Notes: generated by a model from the sequence alone, not told the origin. Positions 44,076-51,811 are shown, numbered from the stretch's first letter. The stretch: DNA of 64,000 nt from Chlamydiota bacterium (GCA_013288825.1 JABDBC010000004.1:5649-69648); one strand, 5' to 3'. Made by a program: numbers and translations.

Positions 44076-47000
44076 ATGAAACTCATTGTATTTCTTTGCC
44101 CCTTCCTCATTATTGCCTCCACCCTCTTTTCTTCCGAAGAACTCCCAACAGCCGTGAATTTAGAGGCAAGCGTTTCGGCCCTCGTCGATGGTTGTGTGAA
44201 TGCCATGACTGGAGATTTTTTGGAGTCTGCAAATGATATCGTCGTTGTCGGGCCTGAACCCCTCGTATTTGAACGGTTTTGTTCTAGTTCAGATTATACT
44301 GCGAACAATTTTATCAGCGGATGGCGACATAACCATGACTCCTGGATGATCCAATATAAAATACAGGATGAGGATGAAGAGGATAAGCCTTACTATATGA
44401 AAGCTCTGCTTGTCGAAAAGACAGGCCGAGCAGCTCTCTACAAGGGCAAATATTACGAAGGGAGAAATTTTGTTCGGGGAAAATTAGAACTTGATGAAAA
44501 TATTGGGCTCACAAACTGTGGATCGGGCTCCATATGCAGCAGAACGAATCCCAAAAACACCCGAATTGTTTTCGATCGTGACACAGAAGAGATCAATGTC
44601 AATTGCCCATCAGGCTCAAAATTCTACTACACACGACAAAAACCTCATAATAATTACGTTTTACGCAGCGAGACTAAGCCAAACAATCATAAACTGGTAT
44701 ATGAACATGACTCACAAGGTTATGTTGACTCTGTTTCGCTTATGGATCAGTCTGGAACAGTTCCATTTGCTTCCATGAACTTTACCGAAAAAATTTTTGG
44801 TGAACGGACGTTTGTGGTTAGTGCCAGCGATGGTCAAAAAGTGTTGTATACCATCGAACCCACTCATTCTGTTAATACGGATAAAAAAAATGTTTGGAGA
44901 TTTCTTCTAAAATCAGTCCTCAAGGACGAAGATTATTTGGAACAATATGAGTATATCGAGCGTAAAATTACACATGCGTCAATGATTTCGCTCATCAAAA
45001 AACCTGATCGACGTTTTAAAGCTATCGAATATTATCCGCCAAAAGATAAAAAACTCGAAATCAAAAATGTTAAAGATTACCGTGCATATCGTGTTTCGTC
45101 TCTAAAAGCTCCTGTCGGCACTGATGAAACCCCTTACACGACTCATCGATTTGTCTACTATGCTACTCGATTTTCATCTGATAAAGAAGATTATCAATCT
45201 GCTCGAAGTGGATACACAGAAGTCTTCAATGCAAAGGATCAGAAAACAGTTTACCGCTTTAAAGATCAACGTTTAACAGACATGGAAAAGTACCTTGACA
45301 ATACCCTTTATTCCAAGGAAAGGTATTTTTGGGGAAAAAGTGGCACCCAAGATTTTTGTAATCTCGTCGCACGGTGCCTCGAAGATGGCGCAGGCAATGT
45401 AGTTCAAGGAAAAGTCTTTGAATATGACTTTATGGGAAACGTAATTCGTGAAAGAAATTATGGAAACATCACGGGCAATAGCGAACCGTTAGTATGGCTA
45501 GAGTTATATCCCTTTCAGAATAAAACAGAACACTACGATCGTCATTACTCATATAGTCCTGAGAGTCCGAATTTACTTTGGATGTGTCTAGAGGACAATG
45601 GAAAGGCTGTTCATCATGCTTATTATGAAGGAACAGACTTGCTACGTTACAAGCTTGTCACTGAAGGTGGGTCCTTTCGAGTGAGGAATTTTTATGCTTA
45701 CGATCATTATGGAGTACTCACCAAAACTATCGTGGATGATGGTTCTACAACTGATGTTAACAATCTTGAAGGTGTCACTCAACGGAAAATCACCTACACC
45801 TTTCCTCGAATGCAAGCCCCTGTAGGTGTTCCTGAACGTACAGATGAGATGTATCTTGATCTGAAAACAGGTCAGGAGGTTTTGTTAAAGAGAATCGTCC
45901 GCACATTTTCTCCTCGAGGAAAACCCCTTTCAGAAGATCACTACGACAGTCGAGGGGCCTATTGCTATACCTTGCGCTGGGAATATGATCAATATGGCAA
46001 TGTTATTTCTGAAACTGATGCATTAGGAAGAGTCATAGAGCGCAAATATGATATCAATCGCAATCTAATCGAAGAACGACAAGCGGGACAAACATACAAG
46101 ACAGTAAACATTTATGATCTCTCCAATCGCTTAATACGTTCTGATGAAGTTCATGACACTGGGAAAATTCTGAGTGCCTTCAATCGATACGACAAGGTTG
46201 GAAATCGAGAGGTATCCATAGACCCCTTCGGACAAGAAACTCGATATGATTATGACGCCCTTAACAGAGTTACGAGAACTTACTTCCCGGCCATTCCGGA
46301 TCAAAATGGATCTCTATGTTTCACTTCGACATTTAAAGAGTATGACGTTTTTGGCAATGTCATTGCGTCACATGATCAGTGTGGGTATGTGACCCGAACA
46401 CGCTTTAATGTCCATGGGAAACCTCTGGAAATCACGTACCCAGATTCTACAAAGGAATACTTTGAATACAATTTAGATGGCACTTTGAAGCGGGAAATTG
46501 GTCGAAATGGGGTGATCACCCGCTATAAACGAGATGTCTTTGATCGAATCACCTTAAAAGAAATCTACTCCAATCAAGGGGAGCTCCTGAGCCAAGAGAG
46601 TTTTCGATATAATTCGTTTCATCTCATCTCCACAACAGATTCTGAAGGACTAACCACAAATTACAAATACGATGCAGCGGGACGTTTAAGCGAAATAGAA
46701 GAATTAGGAATAGTCACATCCTACAATTACGATACCCTCGGAAGAGTCTTTCAGATCGTTGAATGGTACGATGATGACCATTGCAAAATCACAACAAAGA
46801 ATTATGACTATCTAGATCGCTTGATAGAAGAAAAAGTTCTAGATGGTGACAAGCTGTTAAAGCACTCATGTTCCGTCTACGACCCAGCTGGTAATGTGAT
46901 AGAGCGCAAGGACTACAATCAAGCTGGACTAGCCCAAATCACCCGCACAAGATACAACGCTCACAAACAGCCCATCTACATGATCGATCCTGAAGGAGCC

Positions 47001-50749: not shown

Positions 50750-51811
50750 ATGATGAGTGCACATTTATTATTTTTATCACTGTTTTTTTGTGTTGTTTTT
50801 CAGCCGGAGAGGGCGTTTGCAGAATATATTCTAGGCTATGCCACAAAGAAGGAATTGGATCAATTTCCAAAAGAAACTGTATTGCTTAAGTTTCCTGATT
50901 ATGAATATTGGAAGGAGGTAAGTAGATATCTTGATGAAAATAAGGGAATTATTGAATTCATCCCTTACGATCAGGCGGTTCAAAGCAGGACTGAATTAAT
51001 TCGAATTCAATTTTCCGGTAAGTCAACCTTTGCTGTAGGCACATCTTTTGAAGATATTTTAGAGTCCTTGAGCGAGAATGCTCGTTCTTCTAAAAATAAA
51101 TGGAAATTGATTGAGAAAAATAAGTTTGATGCTATTTACGAGAGTTCATATTCGGATCCGAGCTCCAACGAGATCTGTCGCATGTTTTATTCAAAAAATG
51201 GAATTCATGTAGTTGCATTTGAATTCTTAAAGAAAGAGTTAGATCCTATCGAACGAGAAAAGTGCATCACGCTGTTGAAAGAATCAACCAAGCTCCTCCC
51301 CTTTGATGAAGCTGCTTGCAAAAATGGGTTATCCCTTTGTGATCAGTTACAAAATCATCTCGACTTTGGAAAATTTAAAGATTGGAAAGTAAAGTCGAAG
51401 CAGGTTTTTAATAGTGGGTTGATGTCGACATGGCGAGTGCCTCCGACTCACAAAAACGAAGAACCTATTGGCGCATACATTTGGGTGACCTCCTCTCTGA
51501 ATCGAAAGGGGGTTTCTTTGGAAGAAATGTTCGAAACCAATAAAAAAACATTGCGCAATGAATTTGGAGAGGATTTGGTGTTTGAAATTCTTAAACAGTC
51601 ACAAAATGAGATCATATACTTTTATTATCATAAAAAGAATCCTGATCAAGTCGCTATTATAATTAAAGAACTGATTACACCAAGAGGATATTACTTAATA
51701 ACATATAATCATGTTGGTGATGAGAGGATGTCAAGAGAAGACATTCATCAAGTTCAGGAATGGTTGGAGTCCGTTATACCAGCCTCTAGCAAATCAATGA
51801 ACAAAGCCTAA
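50750..51811 (+). CDS. signal-peptide protein, function unknown (third gene of the RHS-downstream array)
   Basis: 353 aa starting MMSAHLLFLSLFFCVVFQPERAFA. Tightly packed after the preceding gene. Confidence 0.75.
   Translation: MMSAHLLFLSLFFCVVFQPERAFAEYILGYATKKELDQFPKETVLLKFPDYEYWKEVSRYLDENKGIIEFIPYDQAVQSRTELIRIQFSGKSTFAVGTSFEDILESLSENARSSKNKWKLIEKNKFDAIYESSYSDPSSNEICRMFYSKNGIHVVAFEFLKKELDPIEREKCITLLKESTKLLPFDEAACKNGLSLCDQLQNHLDFGKFKDWKVKSKQVFNSGLMSTWRVPPTHKNEEPIGAYIWVTSSLNRKGVSLEEMFETNKKTLRNEFGEDLVFEILKQSQNEIIYFYYHKKNPDQVAIIIKELITPRGYYLITYNHVGDERMSREDIHQVQEWLESVIPASSKSMNKA

Follow-up and report, generated by a model that had tools for sequence, protein, structure and literature searches.

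Rhs polymorphic toxins followed by immunity genes are well described, and lipases of type VI secretion systems (T6SS) with periplasmic immunity proteins are likewise well studied. The T6SS lipase effectors Tle1-Tle4 and their periplasmic Tli immunity proteins were reportedly defined by Russell et al. in 2013, and Poole et al. are said to have described orphan rhs-CT/rhsI modules at enterobacterial rhs loci in 2011. Zhang et al. (2012) predicted alpha/beta-hydrolase domains (Tox-ABhydrolase-1, -2 and -3) at the C-termini of polymorphic toxins, the RHS type included, with lipids as proposed substrates, and noted one such tip, independent of an immunity protein, in a Parachlamydia-like amoeba symbiont (PMC3482391). 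WapA of Bacillus subtilis and Streptococcus is reported to be a Sec-exported Rhs/YD toxin of Gram-positive bacteria with a downstream immunity gene (PMC12704120). The rhs genes of environmental chlamydiae have been annotated, for example rhs9 of Waddlia (PMC4989314), and no functional study of a chlamydial rhs gene was found in the literature searched. Here we analyse a 64,000-nt stretch of DNA from a Chlamydiota bacterium (GCA_013288825.1 JABDBC010000004.1:5649-69648; hereafter the window, with coordinates counted from its first letter), which carries an rhs gene whose product ends in a hydrolase-like tip, followed by three genes that we call A, B and C in their downstream order.

As in the proteobacterial Rhs/RhsI systems, a YD shell, DUF6531, a core end of the D-x-x-G-L type, a separate C-terminal enzyme and a small adjoining gene are all found at this locus. 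The 1826-residue open reading frame (ORF) encodes a genuine Rhs protein whose core ends in the canonical way, the residues of a Ser-Asp-His triad are invariant in its tip family, and gene A is linked to this tip in arrays and orphan modules. We consider it rather probable that the locus encodes a Sec-exported Rhs cocoon with a hydrolase tip that attacks neighbouring bacteria, for which A and B provide immunity.

Rhs shell and C-terminal tip

All the parts listed in the initial annotation of this locus are present in the sequence where it had placed them (Table 1). The signal-bearing RHS protein it described is borne out by matches to Pfam and TIGR families and by a hydrophobic N-terminus. Export signals were judged throughout by the maximum 10-residue Kyte-Doolittle hydropathy, a heuristic and not a SignalP prediction; the values for the N-termini of Rhs, A, B and C lie between 2.7 and 3.2, against 1.3-1.9 for three cytoplasmic neighbours, and a signal-like N-terminus is found by the same heuristic in 102 of 113 full-length Rhs homologues. 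The repeats of the shell are recognised by RHS_repeat of Pfam (2.3e-56, 10 stretches) and by the YD repeat TIGR01643 (7.6e-36, 8 stretches). The core reads ...YYDPKISRWITPDP...NNPLTHIDLYGL and ends in H-I-D-L-Y-G-L, with its last residue at aa 1543 (nt 48704), so that the core end previously placed near 48704 coincides with the end of the full TIGR03696 model, and the motif D-x-[YF]-G-[LF] is found at the same position in the homologues. Self-cleavage at this point and encapsulation of the tip in the shell would be expected by analogy with other Rhs proteins. Among the structures of the PDB, the shell matches the solved T6SS Rhs cores 8qjd (5e-36) and 7q97 (5e-26), as well as teneurin-like and TcC proteins. 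The TcC match is limited to the last ~60-160 residues of the shell, no TcB/SpvB match was found in Pfam and no TcA-sized gene lies nearby, and a BC component of a Tc toxin was rejected as a candidate.

To find relatives of the tip, phmmer was run exhaustively on the representatives of 1.84 billion clusters (50% identity); E is <=1e-3 for 536 of them and <=1e-10 for 189. Among the best 150 of the 536, the match is mostly the extreme C-terminus of a protein of ~1750-2000 residues. In an alignment of 30 homologous tips (A1), the invariant positions are G99, G131, S177, G179, G204, N221, D227, H262 and Y269, in tip numbering, and the Ser-Asp-His order already noticed in the 283-residue tip (AHSQG, then D, then H) is kept in every member. 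The tip begins with a helical region of ~75 residues, in which P-I-P-x-V-R-D (tip positions 47-53) is near-invariant, and continues as a compact alpha/beta-hydrolase core. A structure predicted with AlphaFold2 (AF2) from the 30-sequence alignment has a pLDDT of 90 and a pTM of 0.79; the prediction from the single sequence is uninformative (pLDDT 34). In the model, S177 lies at the nucleophile elbow, between strand 170-176 and helix 178-187; strand 218-224 precedes D227, and the loop after strand 249-252 bears H262.

The Foldseek comparison of aa 1544-1826 that had been proposed as a check returned a hydrolase fold: of the 50 PDB matches listed, 47 are at E<=1e-3, and almost all are alpha/beta hydrolases. 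They comprise dienelactone hydrolases, cutinases/PETases, carboxylesterases and one monoglyceride lipase, with a best E of 1.9e-5 but a template-modelling (TM) score of only 0.35-0.6 and an identity of 8-16%. Model and alignment together support an alpha/beta-hydrolase with a Ser-Asp-His triad in the canonical order and topology, and point to a divergent serine hydrolase that looks clearly catalytic.

The more specific designation as a lipase is our best guess, since all sequence matches to lipase families are below threshold. For the single tip, DUF676 reaches 15.3 bits (cut-off 20.3) and Lipase_3 15.4 bits (cut-off 22), and nothing in Pfam or NCBIfam is above threshold. Among the 30 tips, DUF676 gives weak matches to 10, DUF900 to 8 and Lipase_3 to 7; over the curated lipase families tried (Lipase_3, DUF676, PGAP1, cutinase and others) every score is below the gathering score, with weak matches in 2-10 of the 30 members. 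We take DUF2235 and Lipase_3 to be among the Pfam families of the Tle proteins, and DUF2235 has no Pfam match to the tip in any of the 30 members. DUF2235 overlaps Tox-ABhydrolase-1 (PMC3482391). When the 30-tip profile was compared with PDB sequences, the best matches were small lipases around the AHSxGG motif (Lip_vut1, 1e-3; the Bacillus LipA family); phmmer with the single tip found no meaningful PDB relative. A word-indexed protein search returned no homologue with the single tip and one protein with the 30-sequence profile. Of the lipase-like tip in the initial annotation, the alpha/beta-hydrolase fold is therefore retained, while the curated lipase thresholds are not reached and the nearest folds are those of dienelactone hydrolases, cutinases and carboxylesterases.

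Partner genes, arrays and orphan modules

Gene A starts 17 nt past the rhs stop (an ORF of 188 aa from GTG, 49562..50128; the ATG at 49574 is the start called on the identical public contig), gene B overlaps the stop of A (ATGA), and gene C, which lies 13 nt past B, is probably co-transcribed with the genes upstream. The N-terminal signal sequences that had been seen on all three proteins agree with their hydropathy values, within the limits of the heuristic, and in several A/B homologues a Cys stands at the end of the hydrophobic segment, as read heuristically from their N-termini. That the first two are distant paralogues was confirmed by comparing their families profile to profile with hhalign (probability 98.8%, E 1e-16, 148 columns); pairwise BLASTP is marginal (E 0.033). 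The sole Pfam or NCBIfam match of A/B at E<=1 is a spurious one to PsaL, and the Pfam search placed neither in a known Tli family. We regard A/B as an apparently exported partner family not described before. None of tip, A, B or C matches a PADLOC defence family.

Gene C is different. It has no Pfam family match, it is unrelated to A and B in our comparisons, so that a third paralogue or tandem duplicate was rejected, and it is absent from nine other full-length Rhs-tip loci (L001, L003-L005, L007, L010, L018, L033 and L079). A second C-like sequence was found only in L068 (2066-2236; 57 aa, 44% identity, E 2e-7), at a contig end and directly past a tip-A-A array, and because of this position gene C may be a recurrent accessory of the cassettes. 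Of the three-gene immunity-like array suggested earlier, A and B do travel with the tip, but C stands apart.

Homologous Rhs loci were fetched by exact sequence matching and by a genome scan with the B alignment, and a metagenome scan with the A alignment gave 80 further loci, which are unbinned contigs without taxonomic placement; tip, A and B were located by six-frame searches with hidden Markov models (HMMs). The order Rhs-tip, A (175-184 aa), B (187-203 aa) is kept in L001, L003, L004, L005 and L007, with identities to the window of 24-35% for the tip and 25-40% for A/B; L010 has Rhs-tip-A without B. The flanking genes differ among these loci, which indicates that the cassette is the conserved unit. 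L004 and L005 come from the same metagenome-assembled genome (MAG; JAEYWL01), so that a single genome holds two or more complete Rhs-tip-A-B cassettes, on separate contigs; in L005, a further partial B-like ORF lies at 11442-11711 (HMM E 4e-36).

The metagenomic loci are arranged as tip-A, as tip-A-A(-A-A) or as orphan modules in which a truncated tip is paired with A, and the longest array has four A genes past one Rhs-tip (L033). Counting only A/B-family genes preceded by 900 nt or more of sequence (n=62, all but a few of type A), the gene upstream is a tip in 39 cases, another A in 15 and neither in 8, so that 54 of the 62 belong to tip-led arrays. In L079, a full Rhs-tip and an A gene are followed by a 167-codon tip fragment with an A gene of its own, and 5'-truncated tip fragments, each with its own A, are also found in L035, L037, L087 and L089. 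The truncated rhs fragment of L080, itself downstream of another A, retains the core end (ARYYDPKAGRFLSPDP...DPDGR) before its tip and A. These orphan modules hold variants of the same tip family.

The tip+A pair is also used with another carrier: in L015 (1132-2928), the same hydrolase domain, with HSRG, forms the C-terminus of a ~600-aa non-Rhs frame that has a Pro-rich stretch of low complexity and a hydrophobic helix, and an A gene is next. Stand-alone B genes without an adjoining Rhs gene are present in L006 (a Parachlamydiales MAG) and L008, and a stand-alone A in L040; by analogy, these resemble orphan immunity genes. In L040 (region 4294-6922), the A gene is preceded by the gene for a 749-aa protein rich in Pro/Ser and by a 133-aa ORF that lacks a signal peptide; these may be another toxin/immunity-like pair, in which case the region would be a mixed immunity island.

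Related shells with other tips were found in a full-length search (P0160, P0167 and P0168), as were tip-less ones in Chlamydiota MAGs (P0169 and P0170). No Pfam family was found for the tips of P0160, P0167 and P0168 or for the small ORFs past P0167. In the locus of P0167 (L009), the related shell with its unrelated tip is followed by ORFs of 104 and 67 aa that have no hydrophobic N-termini and are not A/B-like, a contrast that rests on this single locus. The rhs gene of L009 lies between a gene for a tyrosine-phosphatase-domain protein and type III secretion system (T3SS) genes of the chlamydial type (CesT chaperone, FHIPEP/SctV; 4390-5940 and 14650-17352). P0160 is from Candidatus Protochlamydia naegleriophila and sits on a contig of 145,285 bp, the same size as is reported for the P. 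naegleriophila megaplasmid (PMC5010888). All the named relatives are from Chlamydiota or Planctomycetes-Verrucomicrobia-Chlamydiae (PVC) MAGs, including L006 and L007 from Parachlamydiales/Chlamydiae MAGs.

Among 45 full-length representatives, shell identity ranges from 26 to 48% and tip identity from 17 to 50%, with a positive correlation between them (Mantel r 0.35, 0 of 999 permutations). The idea of an unusual cassette on a generic shell was not upheld: the tip family fills 536 clusters, and shell and tip co-diverge. The proposed survey of tip and immunity diversity showed the A-type genes to be tip-linked, but the variation is mostly within one tip fold. As judged from these sequences, the best description of the system is that of a large family whose diversity arises inside a single toxin fold, with occasional fold replacement and no hotspot of unrelated tip swaps.

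Table 1. Features of the rhs locus and of the region just upstream, in window coordinates
Feature	Coordinates	Strand	Basis
Rhs/YD-repeat protein gene (shell and tip), 1826 aa	44076..49556	+	ORF list, Pfam, NCBIfam
Signal-peptide-like N-terminal segment MKLIVFLCPFLIIASTLFSS	44076..44135	+	Maximum Kyte-Doolittle hydropathy 3.18, heuristic
DUF6531, aa 41-91, usual N-terminal element of Rhs shells	44196..44348	+	1.2e-07, 32.4 bits (cut-off 24.1 bits)
Rhs-associated core, aa 1459-1543, predicted self-cleavage boundary	48450..48704	+	TIGR03696, 3.6e-22, model 1-76 of 76
C-terminal tip, 283 aa, aa 1544-1826	48705..49553	+	phmmer, alignment, AF2, Foldseek
Ser1720 (tip S177), within AHSQG, aa 1718-1722	49233-49235	+	Invariant in 30 tips
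Asp1770 (tip D227)	49383-49385	+	Invariant in 30 tips
His1805 (tip H262)	49488-49490	+	Invariant in 30 tips
Gene A, 184 aa from ATG, exported-looking, probable cognate immunity/partner	49574..50128	+	Array linkage, homologous loci
Gene B, 203 aa, exported-looking paralogue of A	50125..50736	+	hhalign 98.8%, homologous loci
Gene C, 353 aa, exported-looking, outside the conserved cassette	50750..51811	+	ORF list, homology searches
Two tandem 16-bp palindromes, ACTCAATGCATTGAGT and ACTCAAAGCATTGAGT, ~200 bp upstream of the rhs start	43842..43879	.	4 matches, both strands

Candidate functions of the cassette

In the toxin and immunity reading, the Rhs protein would be exported via Sec, and the tip, cut off at the DLYGL core end, would be kept inside the YD-repeat shell until delivery, as in the solved Rhs proteins. 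The tip, probably a lipase, phospholipase or carboxylesterase, would then cleave an ester linkage in a lipid, or a related molecule, of a neighbour's envelope, while A and B, sent out to that compartment too (periplasmic or lipid-anchored), would bind and neutralise the hydrolase in the producer and in its siblings or kin. If the toxin acts beyond the cytoplasm, hydrophobic N-termini such as those of A and B would be expected, and the two proteins are most likely the immunity proteins of the tip. The genes behave as immunity genes would: they form arrays, accompany orphan modules, occur as stand-alone copies and are absent past the shell with a different tip. The most likely use would be competition between bacteria within a shared host cell.

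Several points weigh against this reading. The lipid substrate is suggested by the sub-threshold similarities alone, and A and B match nothing in Pfam, NCBIfam or the PDB, the last also searched with the A and B alignments. The orphan modules and arrays come from the unplaced metagenome contigs, and tight linkage by itself would be equally in keeping with chaperones or helpers of export. The window genes scanned include none for a T6SS, a TcA or two-partner secretion, and Pfam recognises neither a PAAR nor a VgrG domain in the Rhs protein. As one tip family sits on shells that are 26-48% identical and co-diverges with them, the system is also much less 'polymorphic' than classical rhs loci. 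Finally, lipases directed at the host would be of obvious use to obligate intracellular bacteria.

The last point leads to an explanation that we hold to be unlikely yet worth serious attention, in which the protein is a host-directed effector, exported by Sec and then by a type II secretion system (T2SS) or outer-membrane vesicles, that attacks host or inclusion membranes for lipid acquisition or exit, with A and B only protecting the envelope of the producer. The Chlamydiota relatives are obligate intracellular bacteria. The named ones (P0160, the MAGs, L006 and L007) would fit such a role, as would the retention of the tip on its shell over deep divergence, which is what one would see for a conserved virulence function. 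Host targeting was proposed by Zhang et al. (2012) for the alpha/beta-hydrolase toxin domain of the Parachlamydia-like symbiont (PMC3482391), and rhs9 of Waddlia, a gene that may or may not carry this tip, is a target of the developmental regulator Euo (PMC4989314). Tandem A arrays, orphan tip+A modules and stand-alone A and B genes are, however, hard to square with self-protection from a single enzyme, and tip, A and B have diverged very fast (25-40% identity from locus to locus), as would suit an arms race of matched pairs. Bacterial targets are favoured by the toxin/immunity-type architecture, and where host and bacterium had been weighed as equally open, the balance now tilts to bacteria, with a host role still conceivable.

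The linkage could also mean that A and B are periplasmic helpers of the Rhs-hydrolase, either chaperones resembling lipase foldases or adaptors for outer-membrane translocation or display. Bacterial lipases of families I.1 and I.2 do have a downstream foldase gene, and the position of A directly downstream and probably co-transcribed, the overlap of the A and B frames and the exported-looking N-termini of both would suit this role. We nevertheless judge it improbable, as A and B match neither the lipase chaperone family, on which ground a lipase-specific foldase (Lif) was rejected, nor any other Pfam family, and as four tandem A genes (L033), A genes with start-less tip fragments and A/B genes far from any Rhs gene would be unexpected for a foldase or an adaptor. 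Least probable of all, and by our estimate a long shot, is a structural surface or outer-membrane protein, adhesin- or teneurin-like, with a housekeeping envelope hydrolase. RHS proteins of environmental chlamydiae have been predicted to be outer membrane proteins (PMC2811131), and the shell does match teneurin-like structures; the invariant triad and the complete core cleavage motif are properties of toxin systems, as are the orphan fragments and the related shells with unrelated tips, which do not suit a housekeeping protein.

Returning to the toxin and immunity reading, we can extend it to a tentative broader picture, itself rather doubtful as a whole, in which Chlamydia-like bacteria fight in shared host cells with a Sec-exported, T6SS-free Rhs cocoon, a periplasm-acting hydrolase and a new A/B immunity family, and diversify within one fold via orphan modules instead of exchanging folds. 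If the toxin and immunity reading is true, interbacterial antagonism would be widespread among obligate intracellular bacteria that meet in amoebae.

Genomic surroundings and comparison with known systems

The neighbours of the locus include genes for a NUDIX protein, a fragment of a phosphoenolpyruvate (PEP)-utilising enzyme, helix-turn-helix (HTH) proteins, an FKBP protein and a MkoC-like superfamily 1 (SF1) helicase; elsewhere in the window, the genes scanned include those for RND efflux and a SNF2 helicase. No T6SS, TcA or other delivery machinery is among the genes checked.

The palindromes upstream of rhs have 4 matches in the window against 0.18 expected, all of them at 43842-43879, and may serve a dimeric regulator as an operator, with an uncertain place in the system. 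A conserved operator was rejected, as they are not kept upstream of homologous rhs genes, and so was an Euo site, as they are unlike the published A/T-rich Euo consensus. Further upstream, convergent genes at 40396-40869 (+) and 40967-41197 (-) encode small HTH_3/XRE-type proteins, and the extra N-terminal domain of the 157-aa HTH protein gives the impression of a HicB antitoxin. At 41196-43225 (+) is a 480-aa protein with only the mobile and C-terminal domains of the PEP-utilizers, preceded by a 194-aa ORF without a family; as the N-terminal nucleotide-binding part is missing, this may be a split or truncated gene for pyruvate phosphate dikinase (PPDK) or PEP synthase.

Just 3' of the cassette, 52244-55228 (+) encodes a 994-aa SF1 helicase-like protein (AAA_11/AAA_12), which matches PADLOC MkoC of the Mokosh anti-phage system (3.7e-63) over ~504-945 of the 1136 model positions only, and may be a defence gene or a remnant of one. 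A protein with Schlafen AlbA_2 and HATPase_c_4 domains (12587-13951, -) and an ATPase_2/AAA_16 protein (19284-20705, -) have domain types that are common in defence islands. The RND efflux genes, at 1472-11045, comprise two of the AcrB type, one for a membrane fusion protein (MFP) and one for an outer membrane efflux protein (OEP).

What is new in this locus is the tip family with its invariant triad, the apparently exported A/B family, the evidence from orphan modules and the absence of a known delivery system. It yields a testable unit, a putative serine-hydrolase tip with defined Ser, Asp and His residues together with a dedicated, apparently exported partner family, and both families would be useful as new annotation profiles. 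It also raises the question of how a Rhs cocoon is delivered by a diderm cell without a T6SS or TcA.

The 5'-truncated tip+partner modules and the partner arrays of the related loci resemble the orphan modules of proteobacterial rhs loci. In contrast to the proteobacterial Rhs proteins (8qjd, 7q97 and 8h8a), there is no PAAR, VgrG or T6SS context here, and a Sec-type N-terminus is found instead; unlike in the Rhs/RhsI systems, one tip family is spread over hundreds of shells, and the partners look exported and form an undescribed family. With Tle/Tli, the locus shares a serine hydrolase of the GxSxG type, (here apparently) exported or lipoprotein-like partners, often in tandem paralogues, and a predicted action on the periplasmic side of the envelope, but its enzyme is inside a Rhs shell with no T6SS link, and A and B match no known family. 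WapA proteins come from monoderm bacteria, are anchored in the cell wall and have nucleases as their known tips. With WapA, the locus has in common a (here predicted) signal peptide for the export of a Rhs/YD protein, a (here putative) C-terminal toxin, a (here putative) immunity gene downstream and no T6SS; unlike for WapA, an outer membrane would have to be crossed, since the relatives here are diderm Chlamydiota. The tip is like the minimal lipases, esterases and cutinases (1i6w, 6nkc, 8vb3 and 4ftw) in its A-H-S-x-G-G elbow, compact core and Ser-Asp-His order, and unlike them in its low identity (10-16%; TM 0.35-0.6) and in the extra helical region of ~75 residues with PIPxVRD. In contrast to the chlamydial Tox-ABhydrolase case, reported to lack an immunity protein (PMC3482391), the tip described here has a conserved family of apparently exported partners.

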